Assembly: GCA_047601445.1 (NCBI GenBank)
Contig: JASGJH010000001.1
Coordinates: 6,048,001 to 6,112,000 of the forward strand
DNA from: Myxococcales bacterium
GTDB taxonomy: Bacteria; Myxococcota_A; Polyangia; Polyangiales; DASUME01
Reading direction: 5' to 3'
DNA: 64,000 nucleotides
Shown: positions 12,234 through 34,435 of the stretch, piece after piece
Layout: each line of letters opens with the position of its first letter
How positions within the stretch are numbered: the first letter of the stretch is position 1
Notes under the pieces: generated by a model
What the model saw: only the letters and a program-made list of their open reading frames with translations
Told to the model about the DNA's origin: nothing
The model's database searches: none
Made by a program: the position numbers and the translations under genes

Positions 12234-13076
12234 CTAGACCGGTTCCAGACGCGCCATCACGTCTGCAAGATTCTCGCGCCAGTCGGTCATGGGGCCGACC
12301 AGGGCTTCGGTGGGAGCGAGGTCGAGCACGCTGTAAGCGGGGCGCTTGGCGGGGCGCGCAAAGTCTGCTGAAGTCGTCGGCAAGACGCGCGCCTTGTGGC
12401 CCGCGATGCGCACGATGGCGCTGGCGAACTCGAACCAGGTGCACTCGCCGCCGTCGGTGACGTGCAGCGTGCCACGCGCACCCTTGTCGAGCAGCGCGAG
12501 GGTCACGCGCGCCAGGTGCTCGGCGCTGGTGGGCCGGCCGCGCTGATCGTTCACCACTTTGAGCTCGTCACGCTCACGCGACGCCTTGTAGATGGTGCGC
12601 ACGAAGTTGTTGGCCCACGGCGCGTAGAGCCAGCTCGTGCGTAAAATCAGGTGCGGTCCTTTGGCATCCCAGATGGCCTGCTCGCCCACGGCCTTGGAGC
12701 GCCCGTAAGCGTTGACCGGCGCGTGCGGCTCATCCACGCGATAGGGATGACTCGACTCGCCCGGGAACACGTAGTCGGTGCTGTAGTGGACCAAGGGAAT
12801 GTTCCGCTTGGCGCAGGCCTCTGCCACGATGCGTACGCCCTCACCGTTGGCGCGGGTCGCCGCGGCTTCGTCGGCCTCGGCGCCGTCGACGTTGGTGTAG
12901 GCCGCGCAGTTGAGCACTGCGGAGAAGGGCTGCGCGAGCACGCTCTCGACGTGCGCCGGATTGGTCAGGTCGAACTCGGGCAAGTCGACGCCCACGAAGG
13001 ACTCGCCGCGCGCCGTGAGGAGCTCGCGCAGAGCGCGCCCGAGCATGCCTCGTGCTCCCAGGATCAATGTGCTCAT
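12234..13076 (-). CDS. rmlD: dTDP-4-dehydrorhamnose reductase
   Basis: ILGARGMLG, NCAAYTNVD.AE, HYSTDYVF, YGRSK, RTSWLY, DQ.G.PT, A.RPAYSVL; own ATG at 13076. Confidence 0.92.
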   Translation of the reverse strand: MSTLILGARGMLGRALRELLTARGESFVGVDLPEFDLTNPAHVESVLAQPFSAVLNCAAYTNVDGAEADEAAATRANGEGVRIVAEACAKRNIPLVHYSTDYVFPGESSHPYRVDEPHAPVNAYGRSKAVGEQAIWDAKGPHLILRTSWLYAPWANNFVRTIYKASRERDELKVVNDQRGRPTSAEHLARVTLALLDKGARGTLHVTDGGECTWFEFASAIVRIAGHKARVLPTTSADFARPAKRPAYSVLDLAPTEALVGPMTDWRENLADVMARLEPV

Positions 13077-13637
13077 CGGAAGTCCTCGTAGCGCGGCAGC
13101 TTGTTGGGATCGATCTGCGAGAGCTTGGGGTTCTTGAGAATCCTTGGCGCCCAGCGTCGGGTTCTTGATGGGCCAGGCGATGGCCACGTCCGGATCGTCC
13201 CAGGCGATGCCCACCTCGCACTCCGGGTGGTAGAGGTCCGTGCACTTGTAGGCGAACTGCGCGAACTCGCTGACCACGCAGAAGCCGTGCGCGAAGCCCG
13301 GTGGCACCCAGAGCTGATGATGGTTCTGGGCCGACAAGGCCACGCCGGTCCACTTGCCGAAGGTTGGCGAGCCCACGCGGACATCGATGGCCACGTCGAA
13401 GACTTCGCCTTCCACCACGCTCACGAGCTTGCCCTGGGCGTGCGGCAGCTGCATGTGCATGCCGCGCAGGATGCCGTGGGAAGAACGCGACAGGTTGTCC
13501 TGCACGAAGGGCAGCCGAATGCCCACCTCGGAATAGCGCTTGGCCTGAAAGGTCTCGATGAAGAAGCCGCGCTCGTCGCCGAACACCTGCGGTTCGATCA
13601 AGAGCACCTCGGGCAGTGATTGTGGAGTGACCTTCAC
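13073..13637 (-). CDS. rmlC: dTDP-4-dehydrorhamnose 3,5-epimerase (extra base near 13140 fuses it in frame to rmlD as read)
   Basis: VFGDERGFF.E, QDNLS.S, LRGMH.Q, QGKLV, VFDVAIDVR.GSPTFG, WVPPGFAHGF, YKCT..Y, WDDP. A native-looking C-terminus (LKNPKLSQIDPNKLPRYEDFR*) lies in a shifted frame. Confidence 0.9.
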
Positions 13638-13641
13638 GTGA

Positions 13642-14520
13642 CTACCTACCCCGCTGAATCAGTTCGATCAGATATTGGCCGTAGCCCGTCTTCTTGAGCG
13701 GCTCTGCCAGCGCGAGCACCTGCTCCTGCGACAGCCAACCCTTGTTGAACGCGATCTCTTCCGGACACGCGACCTTGAGGCCCTGGCGCTGCTCGATGGT
13801 CTGGATGAAGGTGGAGGCCTGCATCAGCGAATCGTGCGTGCCGGTGTCGAGCCAGGCCACGCCGCGTCCGAAGATCTCCATGTTGAGCTTGCCCTGCTCG
13901 AGGTAGAGCCGATTGAGGTCGGTGATCTCCAGTTCCCCGCGCTTGCTGGGCTTGAGACTGGCCGCCAGGTCCACCACCTGATTGTCGTAGAAGTAGAGCC
14001 CGGTCACGGCGTAGTTGCTCTTGGGCTGCGCGGGCTTCTCTTCGAGGCCGACCACCTTGCCCTGGGCGTTGAACTCGGCGACGCCGTAGGCCGTGGGATT
14101 CGAGACCCAGTAGCCGAACACGGTGGCACCCTCGCTGCGCTTGCTGGCGTCGCTGAGCATGCCCTGGATGCCGTGGCCGTAGAAGATGTTGTCACCCAGC
14201 ACCAGCGCGCAGGGGTCCTTGCCCACGAACTCGCGTCCGATGATGAAGGCCTGCGCGAGTCCGTCGGGGCTCGGCTGCACGGCGTAGGAGATGTTCATGC
14301 CCCACTGCTTGCCGTCGCCCAGAAGCCGCTGAAAGCCGGCCTGATCGTGAGGCGTGGTGATGACCAGTACCTCGCGGATACCTCCCAGCATCAGGGTGCT
14401 GAGCGGGTAGTAGATCATGGGTTTGTCGTAGACCGGCATGAGCTGTTTGCTCACGGCGATGGTCAACGGATGAAGGCGTGTGCCCGAGCCGCCCGCCAGA
14501 ATGATGCCCTTTTTGATCAT
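13642..14520 (-). CDS. rmlA: Glucose-1-phosphate thymidylyltransferase
   Basis: [56 protein letters not shown]. Confidence 0.97.
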
Positions 14521-14563
14521 CGTTTCTCCGCTCGCGTCGCCCGAGGGCGCGCTTCGACTTCCT

Positions 14564-15613
14564 TCAGCGTGTTCCGTAATTCTGGTCGATCCATTTGCGG
14601 TAGTCGCCCGAGCGCACTTCCTCCACCCAGGCCTTGTTCTCGAGGTACCAGCGCACGGTCTTACGGAAGCCGGTCTCGAAGGTTTCCTTGGGTTTCCAGC
14701 CGAGCTCGCGTTCCAGCTTGGTGGCGTCGATGGCGTAGCGCAGGTCGTGGCCCGGACGGTCGGTCACGTAGGTGATGAGCTTGAGCAGCTCCTGCTCGTC
14801 GGCCCCGGTCTCCTCGGCCACCACGCGGATCAGCTTGTGCACCACGTCGATGTTCTTGAGCTCGTTGAAGCCGCCGATGTTGTAGGTGTCGTCCACCTTA
14901 CCCTTCTGGATCACCGTCCAGATGGCCTCGCAGTGGTCGGTCACGTAGAGCCAGTCGCGGACGTTCTCACCCTTGCCGTAGACGGGCAGGGGCTTGCGCT
15001 CCACGATGTTGCTGATCATCAGCGGGATGAGCTTCTCGGGGAACTGCAGCGGGCCGTAGTTGTTGGAGCAGTTGGTGACCTTGGTGGCGAGCTTGAAGGT
15101 GCGCGCGTAGGCCCGCACCAGGTGGTCGCTGGCAGCCTTCGACGCCGAGTAGGGGCTCGAGGGGTCGTAGCGAGTCTCTTCGGTGAAGAGGCCGCTGTCG
15201 CCCAGGGAGCCGTAGACCTCGTCGGTGCTGACGTGGTGGAACAGACCATAGCCGGGCTTCCAGTTGGCGCGACACGCTTCCAGCAGGTTGAAGGTGCCCT
15301 CGATGTTGGCACGCACGAAGGCTCGCGGGCCCTTGATGCTGCGGTCCACGTGGCTCTCGGCCGCGAAGTGCACCACCAGTTCGGGGTTGTACTTCTTGAA
15401 GAGGGCGTCCACGGCGTCGAAGTCCGCGATGTCCACGCGCTCGAAGACGTAGTTCGGCAGCTTGTCGGTGCCGCTGAGGCTCAGGTTCTTGAGGTTCGCG
15501 GCGTAGGTGAGGACGTCGACGTTGATGAAGGTATGTTCGGGGTGCCGGGGCACCAGGAGATTCAGGAAGTTGGAACCGATAAAGCCGGCGCCGCCGGTGA
15601 CCACGATCTTCAT
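14564..15613 (-). CDS. rmlB: dTDP-glucose 4,6-dehydratase
   Basis: [64 protein letters not shown]; start set at MKIVV. Confidence 0.97.
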
Positions 15614-15902
15614 CTCGCAAGGGTAGCTGAAGGCTTGCGGAGGTCGAAGCGGGTCGCGTGTCGCATGAGATGGGGTCGGAGCGCGCGGAACTGCTCGCAG
15701 TTTCAGCCCGAGTCGACGCGGCACGAGGGGGCGAAGCTGTCGAGGGAACACCGCCCAAATCGCGATTTTGCTACGCTGAAATCTCAACCGTGCCCCGAAG
15801 GCCGTCGAGTCGGGGTCGCATCCTGGTTTTGCTCGCTGGCGGGTCCGCCCGCCTCGAGGGGCCAAAAGCGCGGCTTTGCCCGCGATTTCCGAGGGTGACC
15901 GA

Positions 15903-16217
15903 ATGACGAGACCGACCATCAGTTTGGACAGCGTGGTCCAGGCGACGCCGCGCCAGGTTTCCACCGAGCTGGGCGAGGAGACGGTGATCCTGGGCGTCGA
16001 ACGCGGGCAGTACTTCGGGTTGAGCGAGGTGGGGACGCGGCTCTGGGCGCTGGTGCAGGAGCCCACCTCGGTGGATGCCCTGTGTTGCGGCCTGTTCGCT
16101 GAGTACGAGGTGAGCCGACCGACCCTGGAGTCCGACGTGCTCGAGCTGCTGGCTGCGCTGCATGACCAGGGCCTGATCGACGTCCTGCCACGACCGCAGC
16201 CACAGCCGGTCCCGTGA
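15903..16217 (+). CDS. PqqD-family RiPP recognition element (lasso peptide B1 protein)
   Basis: ~104 aa; ETVIL...GQYFGL.EVG..LW, L..EYEV.....DV..LL..L...GLI pattern; overlaps the cyclase start (GTGA). Confidence 0.88.
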   Translation: MTRPTISLDSVVQATPRQVSTELGEETVILGVERGQYFGLSEVGTRLWALVQEPTSVDALCCGLFAEYEVSRPTLESDVLELLAALHDQGLIDVLPRPQPQPVP

Positions 16218-18085
16218 CGGCCCTGTTCGGTGCCTATAGCCCGGTCGGGATGGCACTCCCGGAGGGGCTCGGTGCGGCCATGGCGCGGGCCCTGCCGCGA
16301 CCCGTCGACGCGGAGGGCTTCATGCAGCAGGGCCCGCTCTTGCTGGGCGCCCGCGCGCGCTGGTGGACGGAGTCCGAGCTCGGGCTCGTGCCGCCGTGGT
16401 GCGATCCCCACAGCGGTGTGACGGGCGTCTTCGATGGGCGCCTCGACCACCACGAGCAACTAGCGCTGGACCTGGGGGTATCCGCCACGCTCTCGGACTC
16501 GGCCTTGATGGTGGCCGCGTACCTGCGTTGGGACGACGGATTCCTGCGGCGATTGCGCGGCGACTTCGCGCTCGCGCTGTGGGATCCGCGCGCGCGCAAG
16601 CTGCTCATCGCGCGCGATGGGTTCGGTGTCAGACCTCTGTACTGGGCCCAGCTGGCCTCGGGGACGCTCTTGTTTGCGTCGCGCGCGAGCGCGCTCTTCG
16701 CCCACCCCGAGCTCACGCAGGAGCTGGACTCCCTGCGTATCGCCCAGTACCTGGCCAGTAGCTTCACGGACCTCGAGCGCACGTTCTTTGCGCGCGTGAA
16801 GCGCTTGCCGCCCGGACATTTGATGGTGCTCCACGAGGGAGAGCGCCAAGCGCAGCCGCACCGCTATTTCGCCTTCGATCGCGAGCGGGTGTTGCCCTCG
16901 CGCGACAATGGCGCCTACGCGGAGCAGTTTCGGGCGCTGTTCTTCGATGCGGTGCGTACGCGCACCCGCACGCGGGAGCCGCTCGCGTGCTTGTTGAGTG
17001 GTGGGCTCGACTCGTCTGGGCTGCTGGGGACCCTGCGTGCGGTCTTGCCAGAGCAGGCCATCCCTTGCTTCTCGGCGCGCTTCGTGGACTTTCCCGAGGT
17101 GGACGAGGGGGGCTGGCTGGCCTTGTTCGACGCCGACGGCACGCGACGCGGCGAGCTGCGCGCGGATCGCATCGGGCCACTCGACTCCATCGACGAGCTG
17201 CATCGTGACCTCGACGAGCCCTTCCACGCGCCCAATCTCTTCGTCTACGAAGCCCTGGCACGCCTGGCCCACGCGCAGGGCGCGCGCGTGTTGCTCGATG
17301 GCCTCGACGGCGACACCGTGGTGGACCACGGCTACTTCGCGCTGCGCGAGCTGCTGTTTCAGGTGCGCCCCCGGCGCCTCGTGGCGGGCATCCGCGCGCT
17401 GCATCACCGGATGGGCTTCGGCTACGCTGAGATTCTCCGGGGCTTCGTGCTCGAGCCGGAGCTGCGAGCGGTGCAGCACGCGCTGTCGCGGGTGGGTTGG
17501 TTGCCGAGCGGCTACCTGACGCGTGAGTTGGCGCGCCAAAGTGGACTTGCCTCGGAGCTGGCCCGGCATGCGGAGGAGCGCCTGAGCGACCGTAGCTTGC
17601 GCGCGCTCCATCATCGCGCGGTGACGGCACCCATGCTGCCCTTCTATCTGGAGGTCTACGACAAGCTAGCCGCCGTGCTCGGTGTGGAGCACCGGCATCC
17701 GTACTTCGATACGGCGCTGGTGGAGTTCTGTCTGGCGTTGCCGCCGGAGCAGCGCCTGTTCGAGGGGTGGGATCGCGTGATTCAGCGGCGCGCCTTCCAG
17801 GGGTTGATCCCGGAGCCGATCCGGGCGCGACAGACCAAGTCCGTGTGGAGCGCCAACTTCGAGCGCCAGTTGTTCTGGGGACGGCCCGAGCGTGTCCGCG
17901 GGCTGCTGGAGAGCCACGAAAGTCCGCTTGCAGCCTACTGCGATCTCAATCGCATGCGGCGTGACTTGCCGCGGCTGGTAGCAGGTCGCGCGCCCGAGCG
18001 CGTGATGGATTTCTGGTGCGCGCTGAGCTTGGGCCTTTGGCTCGAGGGCCGGCACGCAGACGCACCGCAGGCGCCGGAGGCGTGA
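16214..18085 (+). CDS. Asparagine-synthetase-like lasso peptide cyclase (C protein)
   Basis: GDFALALWD, ARDGFGVRPLY, LSGGLDSS ATP-binding motif, HPYFD..LVEFCLALP; lacks the N-terminal catalytic Cys of true AsnB; flanked by RRE and precursor genes. Confidence 0.88.
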   Translation: MTALFGAYSPVGMALPEGLGAAMARALPRPVDAEGFMQQGPLLLGARARWWTESELGLVPPWCDPHSGVTGVFDGRLDHHEQLALDLGVSATLSDSALMVAAYLRWDDGFLRRLRGDFALALWDPRARKLLIARDGFGVRPLYWAQLASGTLLFASRASALFAHPELTQELDSLRIAQYLASSFTDLERTFFARVKRLPPGHLMVLHEGERQAQPHRYFAFDRERVLPSRDNGAYAEQFRALFFDAVRTRTRTREPLACLLSGGLDSSGLLGTLRAVLPEQAIPCFSARFVDFPEVDEGGWLALFDADGTRRGELRADRIGPLDSIDELHRDLDEPFHAPNLFVYEALARLAHAQGARVLLDGLDGDTVVDHGYFALRELLFQVRPRRLVAGIRALHHRMGFGYAEILRGFVLEPELRAVQHALSRVGWLPSGYLTRELARQSGLASELARHAEERLSDRSLRALHHRAVTAPMLPFYLEVYDKLAAVLGVEHRHPYFDTALVEFCLALPPEQRLFEGWDRVIQRRAFQGLIPEPIRARQTKSVWSANFERQLFWGRPERVRGLLESHESPLAAYCDLNRMRRDLPRLVAGRAPERVMDFWCALSLGLWLEGRHADAPQAPEA

Positions 18086-18226
18086 CAGAGATGGTCGCCA
18101 CAGTGGGCGAAACGGCGCCTCGGTTAGCCGCAGGAGGCGTTGCGGTGGCGGTCAAAAGCACCGCTAACGCGAGGCACGTGCGTGAGCGGACGTGTTCGGA
18201 CCCACCGAATCACGAGCGCGTGAGCG

Positions 18227-18242
18227 CGGCACGCAGATTGCT
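18227..18242 (+). promoter_or_regulatory. Sigma54 (-24/-12) promoter upstream of the lasso precursor
   Basis: CGGCAC-GCAGA-TTGCT, exact GG-N10-GC spacing, ~85 bp before the precursor ATG. Confidence 0.65.
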
Positions 18243-18325
18243 CCACTTCCACCCAGGCAAGCGCGCGTCGGGCGCCGCGCCAGACGACCCGTGGATGATG
18301 GATGAACCCTCGGGGGAGGGAAGCA

Positions 18326-18508
18326 ATGGAAAAGGGAACAGGCAAACGAGCGTATGTGAAGCCCCAATTGCGGAACCACGGCAGCGTGGAGCAGGTCACC
18401 GGTTGGTGCGGCTCTTCGTCGGCCGAGTTCTTTGGTGGACCGCAGGGGGCCTCGCACGGGACCAACAAGATCGGCTTTCATCAGAGCGGGCCGGGCATCA
18501 GCCACTGA
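18326..18508 (+). CDS. Lasso peptide precursor (60 aa)
   Basis: GGGAGG RBS; MEKGTGKRAYVKPQLRNHGSVEQVTG|WCGSSSAEFFGGPQGASHGTNKIGFHQSGPGISH; leader matches YxxPxLxxxGxxxxxT; Glu at core position 8. Confidence 0.88.
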   Translation: MEKGTGKRAYVKPQLRNHGSVEQVTGWCGSSSAEFFGGPQGASHGTNKIGFHQSGPGISH

Positions 18509-18580
18509 GCCTGACGCGCGGCAGGGTAGAGCAGGACGAAGGTCGTGGTCGTCTGGGTTCCCTGGTAACCTGGGGAGCAC

Positions 18581-19495
18581 ATGCATCGCTATCGGGTCTA
18601 CGGCCTGACCATCGAAGCGGACTCCGAGTTGACGGAGCTGCTACCGCTCGCGTCGCCCGGCGAAGGTGACGTCTCGGCGGAGCCGCCCGAGATCGACGTG
18701 CGGATCCGCGTCGCGCCGGCGCAGAGCGCGAGCCAGGCGGCGAACGAGCCGGGCAGCTGGGCGCAGCGACTCGGGCCCAACACCATCGTGAGCCAGTTCG
18801 AGAACACCGCGCGCTTCGTGGTGCTGAGCGGACGCGACGTGCTGGTGGAGCCGTGCGCGGGGGCCGATCCCGACCTGGTGCGTCACCTCTTGCTGGGCCC
18901 GGTGTTCGCGCAGGTCCTGTGGCAGCGCTCGAAGTTCGTGCTGCATGGGTGCGTGTTGCGCGTGGGCTCGCGCCAGCTCGGGTTCATCGGCATGTCGGGG
19001 GCCGGCAAGTCCACCCTCGCGATCGCGCTGCACGAGGCCGGGCACACTCTGGTGTGTGACGACGTGGCGGCGCTGGAGTGGAGCGCGAGTCCGGTGCTGG
19101 TGCACCCGGCGTTGCCGCGCATGCGGGCCTTTGCGGACACCCTCGAGCAGCTCGGCGTGCCGAGTGCGGGCCTCGCGCGGGCTCATCGCGACTTGCCCAA
19201 GTGGTTGCTGCCAGCGCAGCGCTTTGCGGACACGGCGCTGCCGCTCGACCGTGTTTACGTTCTGAGCGCGGGCGAGCGCTGCGAGGTCGCGCCGCTGAGC
19301 CGAGCGGAGGCCATGCTCGAGCTACTGCGCAACACCTACTACGCGGAGCAGTACGTCGGCCTGTTCGGGCCGCAAACGCACATGGAGTTGGCGGGTGCCC
19401 TGGCGAACGGGCTTTCGGTGCAGCGCCTCGCGCGTCCACGCGAGTGGGCTCGGCTGCCGGAGCTGGTGCGCTTCATCGAACGCGAGTGCGCCTGA
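18581..19495 (+). CDS. HPr-kinase-like protein (paeninodin-type lasso peptide kinase)
   Basis: YRVYGL.I.A start, LHGCVL (His), P-loop GMSGAGKST, CDD motif; directly downstream of the precursor. Confidence 0.82.
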   Translation: MHRYRVYGLTIEADSELTELLPLASPGEGDVSAEPPEIDVRIRVAPAQSASQAANEPGSWAQRLGPNTIVSQFENTARFVVLSGRDVLVEPCAGADPDLVRHLLLGPVFAQVLWQRSKFVLHGCVLRVGSRQLGFIGMSGAGKSTLAIALHEAGHTLVCDDVAALEWSASPVLVHPALPRMRAFADTLEQLGVPSAGLARAHRDLPKWLLPAQRFADTALPLDRVYVLSAGERCEVAPLSRAEAMLELLRNTYYAEQYVGLFGPQTHMELAGALANGLSVQRLARPREWARLPELVRFIERECA

Positions 19496-24350: not shown

Positions 24351-24797
24351 CTAGTGCTGATGACCAGGCTGGGCGTGATCGTGATCATGGGCCGCCTGCG
24401 TCAGGCGCGCGCTCAGGTACGAGGCCCCGGCGAGCACCAGCGCACCCGCAATGGAGAAGCCGAGCCCCAGGTTGCTGCCCTCGTACACGTGCCCGAATAG
24501 GTACAGTGCGAGCCCCACACCCATGCCCGCGAGCACCCGCAGATCACGGTGGCGCGAGAAGCCCAGGGCACCGCTGGCTGCCACGCTTCCCACCACGGCG
24601 AAGGTCAGTAGCGTGTCGACTCCGCTGCCCGCCGTGACGACGTGGCTCGCGCTGAGGGCAGGCAAGAGGCCTCCGATCAGCGGGAACACCAGGCAGTGCA
24701 CGGCGCAGGCCAGACTCAGCCACGTGGCCGCGCGCTCGAGGCGGCGTGGCTCGAGTTCCTGCTGAGTCGGGGAATGGGCGTGAAGGGGTTCAGACAC
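24351..24797 (-). CDS. MerC-domain membrane protein with His-rich tail
   Basis: SLACAVHCL..P motif, GF.RHR, four TM segments, C-terminal HDHDHAQPGHQH. Confidence 0.8.
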   Translation of the reverse strand: MSEPLHAHSPTQQELEPRRLERAATWLSLACAVHCLVFPLIGGLLPALSASHVVTAGSGVDTLLTFAVVGSVAASGALGFSRHRDLRVLAGMGVGLALYLFGHVYEGSNLGLGFSIAGALVLAGASYLSARLTQAAHDHDHAQPGHQH

Positions 24798-24827
24798 GGA
24801 AGGCTTAGAATGGGGGTTGGTCGGTGT

Positions 24828-24850
24828 AGATGCAACCTGGTTACAAGAAG
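24828..24850. promoter_or_regulatory. Operator-like palindrome 1 (Fur/Zur-type)
   Basis: AGA-TGCAACCTGGTTACA-AGAAG; near-duplicate of 24943-24965; lies in a divergent promoter. Confidence 0.6.
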
Positions 24851-24942
24851 CGTCGTTTCATCAATATGTGAAGTGTTCCTTCGAAAAACACAGGGCTTTT
24901 CGACCGTGAGCACGGGGAACGCCCGTGCTACGTCAGCCGCAC

Positions 24943-24965
24943 AGATGCAATCGTGTTGCAAGAAG
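24943..24965. promoter_or_regulatory. Operator-like palindrome 2 (Fur/Zur-type)
   Basis: AGA-TGCAATCGTGTTGCA-AGAAG (TGCAA-N5-TTGCA); overlaps the likely receptor start codon. Confidence 0.65.
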
Positions 24966-27596
24966 CCAGCGCTCGCGTGGTCCCTGGCGCTGCTGCTGTC
25001 CGGACTCGCGCCACGCGTGGGGTTGGCGCAGCCAGTCGGTGAAACGCCCGCAGGCGAAGGCGCGCCGAGCAACCCGCCACCAAGCCCCACCGATGCGCCC
25101 GCGGCTCCAGCGCCGAGCTCCCCCGCTCCCGGCGCACCGGCCGCGCCCGCGCTGACCCCGCCGCGTGTCGTGCGCAGCGTGCCTCCCGTGTATCCGGTTT
25201 CCCATCTCACACACGGCGAGCATCCCACGGTGGTCCTCAAAGCAACCATCCTGGCCGACGCCAGCGTGGCCGACGTGACGGTGGAGCACTCGGCCGGGGA
25301 GGACTTCGATCAGGCTGCCATCGAGGCAGTCCGGCAGTGGACCTTCGAGCCCGCCAGCCGCGAGGGCGTGGCCATCGCCAGCCGGGTCGGCGTGGCCGTG
25401 CATTTCGAGCTGCCCGAGCTGGGCACCTTCGACGTGGTCTCGGTGACCGCGGCCGAGCCCGTCATTCCGCATCCGCACGAAGAGTCTGCGCCCCACGCAT
25501 CCGAGCCCGAACCCGAACCCGAGTTCGGCGCCCACGCCAAGGTGGATCCGATCTTGCGCGACCAGGACCGCGGCAATAGCGACTACCAGCTCGACCGGGC
25601 GGTGCTGAGCGCTGCACCCCACGTGGACGGCGCGGACCTGCTCAAGACGGCCCCGGGCATGGTCGTCACGCGCGTGGAGGGCGATGCCGTGGGCCATCGT
25701 TTGATGCTGCGCGGCTTCGACGCCGATCACGGCCAGGACATCGAGCTCACCCTGGACGGTGTGCCGCTGAACCAGCCCTCCCACATCCACGGGCAGGGCT
25801 ACACCGACCTGGGCTTCGTGATCCCGGAGGTGGTGAAGGAGCTGCGCGTCACGGAGGGCGTCTACGATCCCTGGCAGGGCGATTTCGCGGTGGCCGGTAG
25901 CGCCACCTTCAACCTCGGGGTCGAGCAACGTGGCACGCAGCTCTCCACCAGCTACGGCTCCTTCAACACGTTCCGTGAGCTTGCCGTCTGGGCTCCCAAG
26001 GGGCAGCCCGACGACACCTTTGCGGCCGTGAACTTCCGCAAGACGCACGGCTTCGGCCAGAACCGCGAAGGCGAGAACGGCGGTGCGATCGCGCAGGGCA
26101 GCTTCGGACACGGACCCTTGAAGTTGATCCTGCATGGCTCGGCCTACGCCTCGCGGGCCCGCACGGCCAACGTGTTGCGCCGCGACGACATCGAGTCGGG
26201 CCGAGTGGGCTTCTACGACGTCTATCCCTACGCCACTGCCCAGAGCCAGAACGGCACCGCCTCGCGCGTGCAGCTCTCCGCCAAGCTGCGCTACCTGGGT
26301 CACGCCGGCGAGAACGCGGAGCTCTTGCTCTTCTACGTGTTGAACGACTTTCGCCTGCTCGCCAACTACACGGGCTTCGAAGAGGTCTCGCATTTCAACC
26401 CGCAATGGGCCGGCCGGGGCGACCTGATCGAACAGAACAACACCGACAGCACCGTGGGCACCCGGGCGCGCTACCGCAGCGTGACCTACGCGCCGCATCC
26501 CCAGGCCAAGGGCACGCTGGAGCTCGGTTTCAGCGCACGAGTGGACCAGATCGACCAGAGTCAGAACCTGGTGCAGGCGCCGCAGAACGCCATCTGGGAC
26601 AAGCGCGTGGATGCCAACATCGTCGGGGTCGACATCGGGGGCTACTTCGATCTCGACACGGCGTTCACCAAGTACGTGCGCTTGAAGGGTGGTGTGCGCG
26701 CCGATCTGCTCTCGTATCGCATCGACGACGCGCTGCAGAACTTCATCCCCGCCGACCGACCCGCGAACTTCATCATGGGCTATCGGCGCACGGCCGCGGG
26801 CATCGTGGTGAACCCGCGCGTGGTGCTCGAGGTGGAGCCCATCCAGTCGCTCGTGCTCAGTGCCGCCTACGGTGAGGGCTTTCGCTCTCCACAAATGCTC
26901 CTTCTGGACGAGGGCGAGCCCGCTCCCTTTGCCAAGGTGCACTCCAGTGATCTCGGCGCGCGCGTGGCGCTCGGTCCACGCGAACAGGTGCACCTGCGCG
27001 GCACGGGCTACTACACCGCGCTCAGCCAGGACATCGTATTCGACGTGCGCGAGGGGCGCGCGCAGCCCGTGGGGCCGAGTCAGCGCATGGGCATGGTGCT
27101 GTACGCCGATGCGCGTCCTTGGTCGTGGTTGTTGGCGACGGCCAGCGTCACCTACGTGCACGCGACCTTGTCTGGGCCACCGCCACGCACCGCCTTCGAC
27201 CCGAATCCACCGCTGCGTAAGGGCGATCTCTTGCCCTACGTACCACCCTGGGTGCTGCGCCTCGACAGCCACGCAGAGCACGCGCTCACCGACATCAAGG
27301 GGGCGCCTCTCGTGGGCCGCGCCAGCCTGGGCTTCACTTATTGGGCGCGTCGGCCGCTGCCTTACAGCGAGCGCGCAGCCCCCGTGTCGCTGCTCGACTT
27401 CGCGCTGCGGGCCACCTATCGCCTGGTCTACGTCGATGCTTCCGTGTTCAACCTGATCGGTACCGAGTACGCCGCCATGGAGTTCAGCTACACCTCGAAC
27501 TGGGATCCAAGCGCCATCCCCTCAAGGTTGCCTGCCCGCACCATCCAGGCGGGGGCGCCGCGCACCTTTCTGTTCACGCTGGGGGTCACGCTATGA
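24945..27596 (+). CDS. TonB-dependent receptor with N-terminal TonB C-terminal-like domain
   Basis: Signal peptide; PVYP...FDQAAIEAVRQWTFEPA (TonB-C); plug LRGFDADHGQDI...DGVPLN..SH.HGQGY.DL.F..PE; C-terminal GAPRT; start uncertain. Confidence 0.88.
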   Translation: MQSCCKKPALAWSLALLLSGLAPRVGLAQPVGETPAGEGAPSNPPPSPTDAPAAPAPSSPAPGAPAAPALTPPRVVRSVPPVYPVSHLTHGEHPTVVLKATILADASVADVTVEHSAGEDFDQAAIEAVRQWTFEPASREGVAIASRVGVAVHFELPELGTFDVVSVTAAEPVIPHPHEESAPHASEPEPEPEFGAHAKVDPILRDQDRGNSDYQLDRAVLSAAPHVDGADLLKTAPGMVVTRVEGDAVGHRLMLRGFDADHGQDIELTLDGVPLNQPSHIHGQGYTDLGFVIPEVVKELRVTEGVYDPWQGDFAVAGSATFNLGVEQRGTQLSTSYGSFNTFRELAVWAPKGQPDDTFAAVNFRKTHGFGQNREGENGGAIAQGSFGHGPLKLILHGSAYASRARTANVLRRDDIESGRVGFYDVYPYATAQSQNGTASRVQLSAKLRYLGHAGENAELLLFYVLNDFRLLANYTGFEEVSHFNPQWAGRGDLIEQNNTDSTVGTRARYRSVTYAPHPQAKGTLELGFSARVDQIDQSQNLVQAPQNAIWDKRVDANIVGVDIGGYFDLDTAFTKYVRLKGGVRADLLSYRIDDALQNFIPADRPANFIMGYRRTAAGIVVNPRVVLEVEPIQSLVLSAAYGEGFRSPQMLLLDEGEPAPFAKVHSSDLGARVALGPREQVHLRGTGYYTALSQDIVFDVREGRAQPVGPSQRMGMVLYADARPWSWLLATASVTYVHATLSGPPPRTAFDPNPPLRKGDLLPYVPPWVLRLDSHAEHALTDIKGAPLVGRASLGFTYWARRPLPYSERAAPVSLLDFALRATYRLVYVDASVFNLIGTEYAAMEFSYTSNWDPSAIPSRLPARTIQAGAPRTFLFTLGVTL

Positions 27597-28300
27597 GCCG
27601 CCTGCTTGCGATCTGCGCGTTGGCTTGTGGCTTGAGCAGCGCGTGCGGGGAAACCGGGCAAGAGCGCATCGAGCTCGATCTCGCCGTGCGCGGTACGAGT
27701 GCCACCTCCCTCGAGAGCGACGGCGCGGTGTTCGTGCTGGAGCGCGCCGACGTGGCGGTGGGGCCGCTCTATTTTTGCGCCTCGGAAGGAGCCGACGTGG
27801 AGCTCTGCGAGACTGCACTGGCCCAACTCACCCAGGTGATCAGCATCAACGGCCTCGCACCCCAAGTGGAGCTTCCCGCCAAGCTCCAGGGCACTACAGG
27901 CGAGGTGCGCTCGGCCCTCTACGACTACGGCATCAGCTGGTTCCTCACGGAGACGGCGCCTGCTCCCGCCGGGGACCCGCAGCACAGCGCGGTGCTCGAG
28001 GGCAGGGTCGCGCGGGACGGGCGGGAACTGAGGTTTTCGGCCCTCGTCGACGTGGTGCCGCTCACCGTAGGGGGCTCGGCGGTGCACGGGCAGCACACGC
28101 GTCACGAGCTCTCCAACGGCGATCTACTCACCATCGCAGTGGACCCCTACGCGTGGTTGCGCCCGGTGGACGTCGACGCGCTGTTCGCGCTCGACTCCGA
28201 GGGCACGGGCAGCGTGATCATCGAACCCGGTAGCCAGGCCTACGAGGCGATCCTGCAGAGCATGCAGAATCGCGCGCCGATCCAGTTCGCGTGGGAGTAG
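27593..28300 (+). CDS. Lipoprotein partner of the TonB-dependent receptor
   Basis: ATGA overlap with the receptor stop; signal peptide ending LSSAC; GPLYFC...C pair. Confidence 0.75.
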   Translation: MSRLLAICALACGLSSACGETGQERIELDLAVRGTSATSLESDGAVFVLERADVAVGPLYFCASEGADVELCETALAQLTQVISINGLAPQVELPAKLQGTTGEVRSALYDYGISWFLTETAPAPAGDPQHSAVLEGRVARDGRELRFSALVDVVPLTVGGSAVHGQHTRHELSNGDLLTIAVDPYAWLRPVDVDALFALDSEGTGSVIIEPGSQAYEAILQSMQNRAPIQFAWE

Positions 28301-28388
28301 GGCCTAGCAGTTCCCACACCATGTCGTACGCGATCTTTCGGAGAGTCGGGCACGGGCACGTGGAGGTCAGGGGTGGGACTGGATACGG

Positions 28389-28835
28389 TTAGGCACAGGC
28401 GTCGCACTGCCCTCGGATCTGAATCTCCAAATCCCCGCCCTTGCGCAGCGCGCTGGGGGCTCCGCGCAGGGCCTTGATGGCGATGCTGCCCGAGGGGAGA
28501 CACGAGACCTTGCCGCAGTCGGTGCACACGAAGTGCGGGTGTTGCTCGCTGTCGTGGGCGTTGCTCGAGCCGCCAGCCAGCTCGAAGCGCCAAATGTGGC
28601 CCACGTCACTGCGACGCAGGATGCCCGCCTCGGCCAGGTCGACCAAATTGCGGTAGACCGTGGTGCGATCGAGGCCCTGCTGCTCCAGCCGCGCCGCCAC
28701 GTCGGCGTGGCTGAGTGGGGTATCGGCGCCGCGCAGCACATTGATGACGGCGGTGCGAGACGAAGTCACGCGCAGTCCTGCGGTCTTGAGGAGCTCGCGG
28801 GTCTGCTCGCGGTCGTCCTTCTTCGCGCCTTTCAT
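28389..28835 (-). CDS. Fur-family transcriptional regulator (possibly Zur-like)
   Basis: GLRVT..R, DR.TVYRNL..L.E.G, HPHFVCTDC and C-terminal CDAC zinc motifs. Confidence 0.92.
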   Translation of the reverse strand: MKGAKKDDREQTRELLKTAGLRVTSSRTAVINVLRGADTPLSHADVAARLEQQGLDRTTVYRNLVDLAEAGILRRSDVGHIWRFELAGGSSNAHDSEQHPHFVCTDCGKVSCLPSGSIAIKALRGAPSALRKGGDLEIQIRGQCDACA

Positions 28836-33059: not shown

Positions 33060-33313
33060 CCGTGCCGGCTCCTGTCGCGCCTCCCGCCGCGCGTGCTGCA
33101 AACACGCTGCAAACTTGCGCGCACACGGTTTTGGGACCGATTTAGGCGCGTCGCAAGATTCGCGCGCCACAGGAGCGGTCAAGTCATTGTCCCCAGTGGC
33201 CTGGTCAGCCGCGCCCACTGCGGTGGTCGTTTCTGTCATGGATGGCTGGTTGAAACGCCTCGTTGTGCTGGCGGCCATGCACTCCGACGGCGTTCTCGAA
33301 AGACCAGGAAGAC

Positions 33314-34435
33314 ATGTCCTCCCTTCGCCTAGCTAGCGCTTCGCTTCTGTGGGCCCTGAGCGGCGCGCTCGTCGCTTGCGGCAGTGATCCCGAGCCTCTC
33401 TCCTCCGGTAACCACGACATCCACGGCGACGGGGATGGAGATGGCGACGGGGATGGCGATGGCGATGGTGACGGTGACGAAGGCGACGGCGATACCGGCG
33501 ACGGCGACACTGGCGACGGCGACCGCGGAGACGGGGATGTTGGCGACGGCGATGTCGGCGACGGCGATGTCGGCGATGGCGACGGGGACGTGGTCGGGGA
33601 CGGCGATGGCGACACGGCCACGCCCGGGTGCTGCAAGGACTGCATCTGCCGCGGAGCCGATCCGGCGGACGGCGTGCTCGACAAGAACGGTCCCTTCAAG
33701 ACCGCCAAATACACTGACGGCTTCCGTAACGGTCCCGAGTTCGGAGCGGCCACCGTGTACTACCCGACCGACGCGCCGCCTCCCCTGGCTGGCGTGATCA
33801 TGTGCCCCGGCTATACGGCCGTCCAGAGCTCCATCGCGGCGTGGGGGCCCTTCTTCGCCTCCCACGGCATCGTGCTGGTCACCATCGACACCAACACCAC
33901 CGGAGATCAGGTGCCCCAGCGGGCCAAGGCGCTGCTCGACGCGCTCGATTCCCTCAAGCAGGAAAACACGCGCGACGGCAGTCCGCTCAAGGGCAAGCTC
34001 AGCAAGGATCGCTACGGACTCTCCGGCTGGTCCATGGGCGGAGGCGGCACCTGGATCGCCACCGCTGCGCATCCCGAGCTCAAGACGGGCGTGACCCTGG
34101 CCGGCCACAACGCCACCGCGGGCGGCGGCCAGATCGCAGCCGGCTCCAAGGTGCCCACCCTGATGCTCAACGGCGCCGACGACACCTCCATCCTCGGCGG
34201 ACAAAACCAGACCCAGAACGCCTATGCCGCGATCCCCAGCACCACACCCAAGCTCATGTACATCATGAACGGCGAGGGCCATTTCTCCTGGGGCACGCCC
34301 ACCACCAACGGCAACGCATCGGGTCGCTACGTGATGGCCTGGGAAAAGACCTTCCTCGAGGGCGACGAGCGCTACCGCAAGTTCCTGTTGGTGGAAGGCC
34401 CGAAGGCGGCCGTGTGGGAATCGAACCTGAAGTGA
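33314..34435 (+). CDS. Lipoprotein with Gly-Asp repeat linker and cutinase/PETase-like alpha/beta hydrolase domain
   Basis: Lipobox LVAC; (GD)n tract ~33424-33615; PGYTA.QSSI..WGP..ASHG, TIDTN, GWSMGGGG, VPTL...G.DD, GEGH, AW...FL.GD.RY. Confidence 0.85.
   Translation: MSSLRLASASLLWALSGALVACGSDPEPLSSGNHDIHGDGDGDGDGDGDGDGDGDEGDGDTGDGDTGDGDRGDGDVGDGDVGDGDVGDGDGDVVGDGDGDTATPGCCKDCICRGADPADGVLDKNGPFKTAKYTDGFRNGPEFGAATVYYPTDAPPPLAGVIMCPGYTAVQSSIAAWGPFFASHGIVLVTIDTNTTGDQVPQRAKALLDALDSLKQENTRDGSPLKGKLSKDRYGLSGWSMGGGGTWIATAAHPELKTGVTLAGHNATAGGGQIAAGSKVPTLMLNGADDTSILGGQNQTQNAYAAIPSTTPKLMYIMNGEGHFSWGTPTTNGNASGRYVMAWEKTFLEGDERYRKFLLVEGPKAAVWESNLK

Follow-up and report, generated by a model that had tools for sequence, protein, structure and literature searches.

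How a lasso peptide cluster without a leader peptidase of its own might still give a mature product is the question raised by four genes at 15903..19495 of the window, by which we mean the whole 64,000-nt stretch of DNA analyzed here (Myxococcales bacterium, contig JASGJH010000001.1, positions 6,048,001 to 6,112,000). All four open reading frames (ORFs) are intact and lie on the plus strand in the order B1, cyclase (C), precursor (A) and kinase (K). A first-pass annotation had recognized a recognition element of the B1 type, an AsnB-like cyclase, a 60-residue precursor and an HPr-like kinase on one strand; all four were confirmed, and its designation of the locus as a lasso peptide cluster with a kinase is supported by lasso-type genes and a lasso-type kinase. 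That annotation had found the gene set and implied, without resolving it, the lack of a B2 leader peptidase, which is the more interesting point. We propose that the cluster is active, that its product is a phosphorylated lasso peptide, and that genes located elsewhere take part in maturing it (probability about 0.6).

The suspected myxobacterial origin of the DNA is supported by four MYXO-CTERM and two TIGR02265 matches above cut-off, markers that were absent from 14 control genomes. Comparisons within the genus covered ten genomes, G000 (the genome studied) to G009; L numbers denote further loci, including metagenome loci. G000 is a single contig and 98.7% complete, and its relatives are fragmented assemblies throughout, 72-99% complete and at most 97% complete in eight of nine cases.

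Proposed leader removal without a local peptidase

The first gene (15903..16217, +) encodes a 104-residue B1 protein of the PqqD family, i.e. a recognition element (RRE) for peptides that are made by ribosomes and modified after translation (RiPPs). It matches PF05402 with 67.1 bits (cut-off 23.4) and NF033536 with 65.3 bits (under the cut-off of 80), keeps a tyrosine (Tyr37) that is invariant in 13/13 aligned RREs, and has an orthologue at the same place in all ten genomes of the genus. Profile scans found no B2, the transglutaminase-like leader peptidase, in the cluster or in the whole window. That a diverged B2 had been overlooked in the vicinity was considered and rejected: the B2 profile found one ORF genome-wide, and other PF13471 matches reached at most 16.3 bits.

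The only B2 over the cut-off in the genome lies approximately 330 kb from the cluster (G000:C1:6394049-6394525). It keeps Cys91 and His126, and its ratio of nonsynonymous to synonymous substitution rates (dN/dS) against the G007 version is 0.35. It follows a further B1 and a pair of ABC-2 exporter genes at a locus with neither precursor nor cyclase, and leader-pattern and profile scans found no extra precursors nearby. By synteny this locus is a relic: its G007 version is complete (nucleotidyltransferase (NTP transferase), B1, B2, C, A, K), and relative to it C, A and K have been lost.

The cluster itself, adjacent to rmlB in all ten genomes, takes three forms. G004, G008, G009 and G001 have B1-B2-C, followed by A and K in G004 and G008, while the contigs of G009 and G001 end after C. 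G000, G007 and the metagenome locus L110 have B1-C-A-K. The third form, B1-B2-A-K-ABC without a cyclase, is found in G002, G003, G005 and G006 (G002:C137, G003:C368, G005:C125 and G006:C55; L068, L066, L067 and L069, respectively) and is echoed by L112, L118 and L124. Each of the ten genomes carries one split-type B2, either in the cluster (eight genomes) or at the other locus (G000 and G007; the two matches in G007 are overlapping halves at contig ends and were counted as one). G004 has a distant RRE-fused B in addition, and additional cyclase clusters, with no B2 of their own in view, are present in G001 and G009. The B2-less G000, G007 and L110 form one clade (support 0.947) with cyclases 64-67% identical, and dN/dS of all four genes in these members is 0.24-0.48. 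On this evidence the loss of B2 is old and clean. Since the B2-less genes evolve under such ratios and one B2 is kept per genome, we favour the reading that the precursor is processed in trans. Among 79 related cyclase loci from many phyla, with genes scored within approximately 6 kb, five or more (L131, L147, L152, L194, L199) likewise show B1-C-A-K without B2.

Several observations weigh against this reading or against the proposal as a whole. The dN/dS values of the four genes are well above those of the neighbouring rmlB (0.07-0.15), B1, C and K each fall under curated lasso-specific or HPr-kinase cut-offs, though the best family is the expected one in each case, and every comparative count was taken among kin. 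Moreover, the B2 that is left is a paralogue and not an orthologue of the lost one; it shares only 33-42% identity with the cluster-type B2s and does not group with them. Its native leader in G007 ends in Thr-Arg, as does the second precursor of G000 described below, and not in Thr-Gly. In the pseudomycoidin system a non-cognate leader of close similarity was left uncut by PsmB1/B2, and the product was made without B1/B2, by host proteases, in Escherichia coli and Bacillus subtilis (PMC6993621). These last points, namely the leader specificity of PsmB1/B2, the formation of pseudomycoidin without it, and a distant B2 of another paralogue lineage with a Thr-Arg leader, are also what recommends an alternative in which the same lasso product is released by a housekeeping protease and the distant B2 serves the second cluster only. 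We consider this unlikely, as Thr-2 of the leader and RRE Tyr37, which is thought to contact Thr-2 (PMC10368454), are kept in all B2-less members, and as the split-type B2 has been kept in 10/10 genomes, at either locus.

The second cluster (L022:9791-16138, equivalent to G000:C1:6163790-6170137) lies approximately 100 kb from the window, likewise has no B2, and encodes B1, a cyclase, a 59-residue precursor, an S-adenosylmethionine (SAM) methyltransferase, a kinase and an ABC exporter. Methyltransferases related to this one are found again in other lasso clusters with a kinase, at 6 of the 79 loci and also in G001, G009 and L278-L281 (loci L128-L206 and L274-L293). Just upstream of the second cluster a putative RimO-like gene is split over two frames (L022:8302-9697), likely by an indel error. 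No homologue of the second precursor was found in sequence searches. Its core contains two Cys, and its first acidic residue is Glu10, with none at positions 7-9. Because engineered fusilassin tolerates a 10-residue ring (PMC13352647), a natural 10-membered ring is conceivable, and the cluster may have either such a ring or a decaying gene.

The precursor and its predicted ring

The precursor ORF (18326-18508, +; 60 residues) is preceded by a purine-rich stretch resembling a ribosome-binding site. It scores 26.6 against NF033528 (cut-off 33) and 18.1 against NF033521, or 18.9/19.2 in another scan (cut-off 19). The strict leader pattern seldom arises by chance, being found in 25 of 154,573 stop-to-stop ORFs genome-wide; eight of these have 12-50 residues to the stop, two of them directly behind lasso cyclases. 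The leader (18326..18403) comprises 26 residues with Tyr-17, Pro-14, Leu-12, Gly-8 and Thr-2, and its Tyr, Pro, His, Gly, Ser, Glu, Thr and Gly are invariant in 15/15 aligned relatives. From the register of Tyr-17, Pro-14, Leu-12, Gly-8 and Thr-2 it follows that the Gly after Thr ends the leader and that the core opens at Trp (18404). The leader noted in the first-pass annotation is present, with this refinement of its boundary. A Gly1-Glu9 register was rejected, since Thr would then stand at -1 and the Tyr-17/Pro-14/Leu-12 spacing would be lost.

The core (18404..18508, stop included) has 34 residues, among them Trp1, Ser4 (18413), Glu8 (18425), Ser33 (18500) and a final His34. Leader register and conservation predict cleavage before Trp1 and a ring from Trp1 to the acceptor Glu8; the computed neutral monoisotopic mass is 3428.54 for the linear core, 3410.53 when cyclised and 3490.49 when cyclised and carrying one phosphate. 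Glu8 is present in all eight cyclase-linked relatives (G000, G004, G007, G008, L110, L120, L121, L125), whereas none of seven precursors from cyclase-less loci has Asp or Glu at positions 7-9, their Asp being at 5 or 6. These seven count as a single natural control, because two are identical and the group probably reflects one loss event. Covariation with the cyclase supports the predicted role of Glu8. A precursor profile search over 1.84 billion representatives gave 104 matches, 86 of them with strict leader and core; of 26 Trp1 precursors, 17 had Glu8, 23 an acceptor at 7-9 and 22 a terminal Ser. Rings closed on Trp1 have a precedent in the Trp1-Glu9 ring of fusilassin (bioRxiv 10.1101/2020.11.25.399105; PMC12214591).

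The cyclase-less precursors, in addition to their missing acceptor, have Ser at the end. No lasso-type cyclase was found in G002, G003, G005 or G006, the sole NF033535 matches (in G002 and G003) being NAGGN amidotransferases. By analogy with the linear polyphosphorylated peptides (LPPs) considered below, these clusters are candidates for linear phosphopeptides processed by a lasso B2. At other metagenome loci (L107-L109, L114, L115, L117, L123, L126) we observed Phe1 precursors that are very short and contain much Cys-x-Gly-Ser-Gly-Cys; as many as four stand in tandem, and several have no acceptor at 7-9.

A threaded product is called into question by the core itself, which is longer than solved lasso peptides (on average 19.3 +/- 3.9 residues, with loops of 3-20; PMC12214591) and has a Gly/Ser-rich middle that varies by approximately 8 residues among relatives. 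The product might instead be a branched-cyclic peptide, with the ring closed and the long Gly-rich tail unlocked, or a linear phosphopeptide. Few bulky residues precede Phe25-His26 in this length-variable core, sister lineages have dropped the cyclase entirely, and the lasso form of the bsf product of Bradymonas sediminis was never detected despite several hosts (PMC10368454). However, Glu8 and the cyclase are co-conserved, loops of up to 20 residues are known (PMC12214591), and a candidate plug is kept: an Ile/Val-Gly/Ala-Phe-Arg/His block, which could serve this role, lies at a fixed distance from the end throughout the clade of precursors ending in Ser-His. An unthreaded product is therefore improbable.

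The first-pass annotation did not recognize the peptide as one described, and sequence and profile searches agree in that no named close relative was found. The peptide is new, while the kind of cluster is common.

Gene integrity and the identity of the cyclase

That the cluster is a decaying remnant, dead since the loss of B2, might be suspected from the absence of both B2 and an exporter from the cluster and from dN/dS values exceeding those of the housekeeping neighbour rmlB. It is very unlikely in view of reading frames and catalytic residues that are intact in three lineages with cyclases 64-67% identical, dN/dS far under 1, and a clean overlap of B1 and C. A scan for promoters and terminators gave no promoter, and two terminators against 1.9 expected.

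The cyclase gene (16214..18085, +) starts within this overlap, at the B1 stop codon, and encodes 623 residues. Its best NCBIfam model is NF033535 (387.7 bits, the cut-off of 525 not being reached), ahead of the asparagine synthase model TIGR01536 (205.6; cut-off 267.1). The loop of the adenosine triphosphate (ATP)-pyrophosphatase is conserved at 261-267, and the AlphaFold2 model (mean predicted local distance difference test score 84.3) matches the fold of AsnB and beta-lactam synthetase. Searches of the PDB by sequence (five sequences) and by fold returned AsnB-fold enzymes only and so cannot tell a cyclase from an amidotransferase. Similarly, an alignment-based search of 401 sampled genomes of the phylum matched 286 (at most three candidates scored per genome), a count that is uninformative because ordinary AsnB-type genes pass the threshold.

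More telling are the N-terminus and the tree. Position 2 is Thr, so that the glutaminase Cys is absent; a Met-Cys start was found in 0/16 curated cyclases, 0/78 locus-derived cyclases and 10/11 AsnB-type sequences. In a FastTree phylogeny of 66 sequences (27 curated and every second, i.e. 39, of the 78 locus-derived cyclases), 55 precursor-linked or cyclase-like sequences formed one clade, apart from 11 AsnB-type sequences including E. coli AsnB, the separating branch having a length of 1.01 and moderate support (0.78). The grouping with bona fide AsnB enzymes that the first-pass annotation had named as fatal to its claim was thus not seen. Hence the idea that the large gene merely encodes one of the usual glutamine amidotransferases for making polysaccharides, with an incidental small ORF beside it, for which the AsnB fold, the unreached cyclase cut-off and the adjacent rml genes can be cited, is largely refuted by the missing Cys, the separate clade, the conserved precursor, RRE and kinase, and a B2 in the same operon in four cyclase-bearing relatives of the genus.

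Predicted phosphorylation, known systems and significance

The kinase gene (18581..19495, +; 304 residues) matches PF07475 with 26 bits, under the cut-off of 33.3. His122, Lys143, Ser144, Asp160 and Asp161 are invariant in 11/11 aligned kinases, with the residue spacing given for BsfK (PMC10368454). In a tree of 107 kinases it falls into a clade of 74 (support 0.968) that includes a Paenibacillus paeninodin-type locus, while the Bsf-type locus L274 is among the remaining 33, whose grouping has poor support (0.389). A Ser lies within the last two residues of 41/68 assignable precursors in the kinase's clade, compared to 11/32 on the other side (counts among kin), and in the nearest kinase clade this holds for all 15 that could be assigned, with Ser as the ending in 11 and Ser-His in 4. 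The Ser33-His34 ending is also present in five relatives and is for this reason not an error.

These comparisons point to Ser33, one residue before the C-terminus, as the most likely phosphosite. Two findings tell against it: Ser4 is as invariant as Ser33 (7/7 in the Ser-His clade, as opposed to 1/22 of the Ser-terminal Trp1 precursors), and where neighbouring kinases have a Lys-Arg motif, precisely the Ser-His clade has Lys-Trp. The phosphosite may therefore have moved, which makes Ser4 a rival site, and phosphorylation of an internal Ser has precedent in BsfK and LppK (PMC10368454; PMC13381572).

Gene content and residues being as observed, the chemistry of each step would follow that of homologues. 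B1 would bind the Tyr-x-x-Pro-x-Leu leader, as in its family, and the kinase, helped by B1, would phosphorylate the linear precursor, most likely at Ser33, its activity being assumed from characterised homologues and the site from comparison. The distant B2 would then cut in trans after Gly-1, and the cyclase would spend ATP to join Trp1 to the side chain of Glu8, with putative threading of the tail. More tentatively, an NTP_transf_5 enzyme may cap the phosphate with a sugar in the manner of PsmN. Its gene is unlinked in G000 (6482891-6484012), present in all ten genomes and, in G006 and G007, linked to genes of the lasso type. Also more tentatively, the ABC-2 pair beside the distant B2 probably exports the product; such pairs come after the kinase in G008, G002, G003, G006 and L125.

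With regard to the features by which lasso clusters are recognized, the leader pattern, an acceptor at 7-9, a cyclase unlike AsnB and an RRE are all present, and a B2 within the cluster is absent. The earlier label 'paeninodin-type' is apt for how the set would work and not for family membership. The paeninodin and pseudomycoidin clusters (PadeK, ThcoK, SyanK, PsmK, PsmN) share with ours a split B1, an AsnB-like cyclase, an HPr-like kinase with His-Lys-Asp-Asp (here His122, Lys143, Asp160 and Asp161), an NTP_transf_5 gene in the genome, a polysaccharide-gene neighbourhood and a kinase on the tree side of the Paenibacillus C-K-B1-B2 locus L179. In contrast to them, our cluster has a leader of the Tyr and not the Trp type, B2, exporter and NTP transferase outside the cluster, a 34-residue Trp1-Glu8 core ending in Ser-His and not Ser, and a myxobacterial host. 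The paeninodin family was reported as restricted to Bacillota, with Trp-x-x-Pro leaders and a phosphorylated C-terminal Ser (PMC13381572, PMC9266682); of these traits neither leader and phylum nor the terminal Ser is found here.

The bsf cluster of B. sediminis (PMC10368454) is likewise a deltaproteobacterial, kinase-bearing lasso cluster with a Tyr-x-x-Pro-x-Leu leader, the same kinase spacing and RRE Tyr37, and it sets a precedent for a target Ser that is not at the terminus. It has Ile-2, a Gly1-Asp8 ring and phospho-Ser3, with B2, exporter and NTP transferase all in cis, whereas we find Thr-2, Gly3 and a kinase across the tree from L274; the Bsf subfamily signature, Ile/Val at -2 with Ser/Thr at core position 3, is thus missing. 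Fusilassin (fuscanodin) and cellulassin are Trp1 lasso peptides with split B proteins as well, but are actinobacterial, 18 residues long and ringed Trp1-Glu9, and the accessible parts of their sources describe no kinase. LPPs (PMC13381572), finally, share the RRE, HPr-like kinase, NTP transferase, exporter and Tyr-type leader, and are the closest parallel to the cyclase-less sister clusters of G002, G003, G005 and G006. LPPs come from Bacillota, carry phospho-Ser3 and use a signal-peptidase-I-like protease, whereas a cyclase is present in our cluster and the peptidase of the sister clusters is a lasso B2; no signal-peptidase-I-like protease was found among the flanking genes scanned.

Divergent from B1 lies an rmlB-rmlA-rmlC-rmlD operon for deoxythymidine diphosphate (dTDP)-L-rhamnose synthesis (12234..15616, -), with TIGR01181, TIGR01207, TIGR01221 and TIGR01214 over their cut-offs. 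Because of a one-base insertion near 13130, relative to 3/3 aligned homologues, rmlC and rmlD read as one 467-residue ORF (12234-13637, -), probably an assembly error. rmlB stands head-to-head with B1 in 10/10 genomes of the genus and near just 4 of the 79 related loci elsewhere, and the adjacency may reflect simple descent. That the operon supplies dTDP-rhamnose as the sugar is a guess. With low confidence, the neighbourhood suggests that the product is a phospho(glyco)peptide, either secreted or associated with the surface, that has its role in connection with cell-surface polysaccharide and is not a classical antibiotic. Further away in the window are a probable metal-uptake module (24351-28835; MerC-like gene, TonB-fused receptor, lipoprotein-like gene and Fur-family regulator) and a PET-hydrolase-like protein (33263-34435, +; PF12740, 174.7 bits).

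The previous argument from rarity is weak. A lasso B2 gene is present in 57/401 sampled genomes of the phylum, the 79 related loci have a kinase in 70 cases, B2 in 61 and an NTP transferase in 31, and the kinase-bearing bsf cluster is partly characterised (PMC10368454). The accessible text of a 2026 review (PMC13352647) does not contain 'myxo'. Because such clusters are common, the peptide alone is one more candidate, and the cluster is real and a modest variation on a known lasso type. Literature searches confined to open papers listed none that deals with this cluster, with trans action of a lasso B2 or with cyclase-less clusters that depend on B2; supplementary tables of predicted clusters may list these genes.

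A bolder reading, which we regard as doubtful, holds that one B2 and an unlinked NTP transferase form a genus-wide toolkit serving several leaders, that the 34-residue Trp1-Glu8 lasso is phosphorylated by a kinase shifted from the terminal to an internal Ser and capped with a sugar from the rhamnose pathway, and that the loss of the cyclase and the shortened ring region in sister species mark a second, B2-dependent origin of linear phosphopeptides. If a leader peptidase does act in trans on several lasso clusters, it would represent a B2 whose promiscuity is natural and of use in engineering, and B2-less clusters, such as those at five or more of the related loci, would not have to be written off as broken. 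The Ser-His clade offers a natural experiment on how the kinase chooses its site. The purpose of the knot and the phosphate in paeninodins and LPPs is stated to be unknown (PMC13381572), and the presence of lasso and cyclase-less versions at one locus in sister species would allow a direct test of it.

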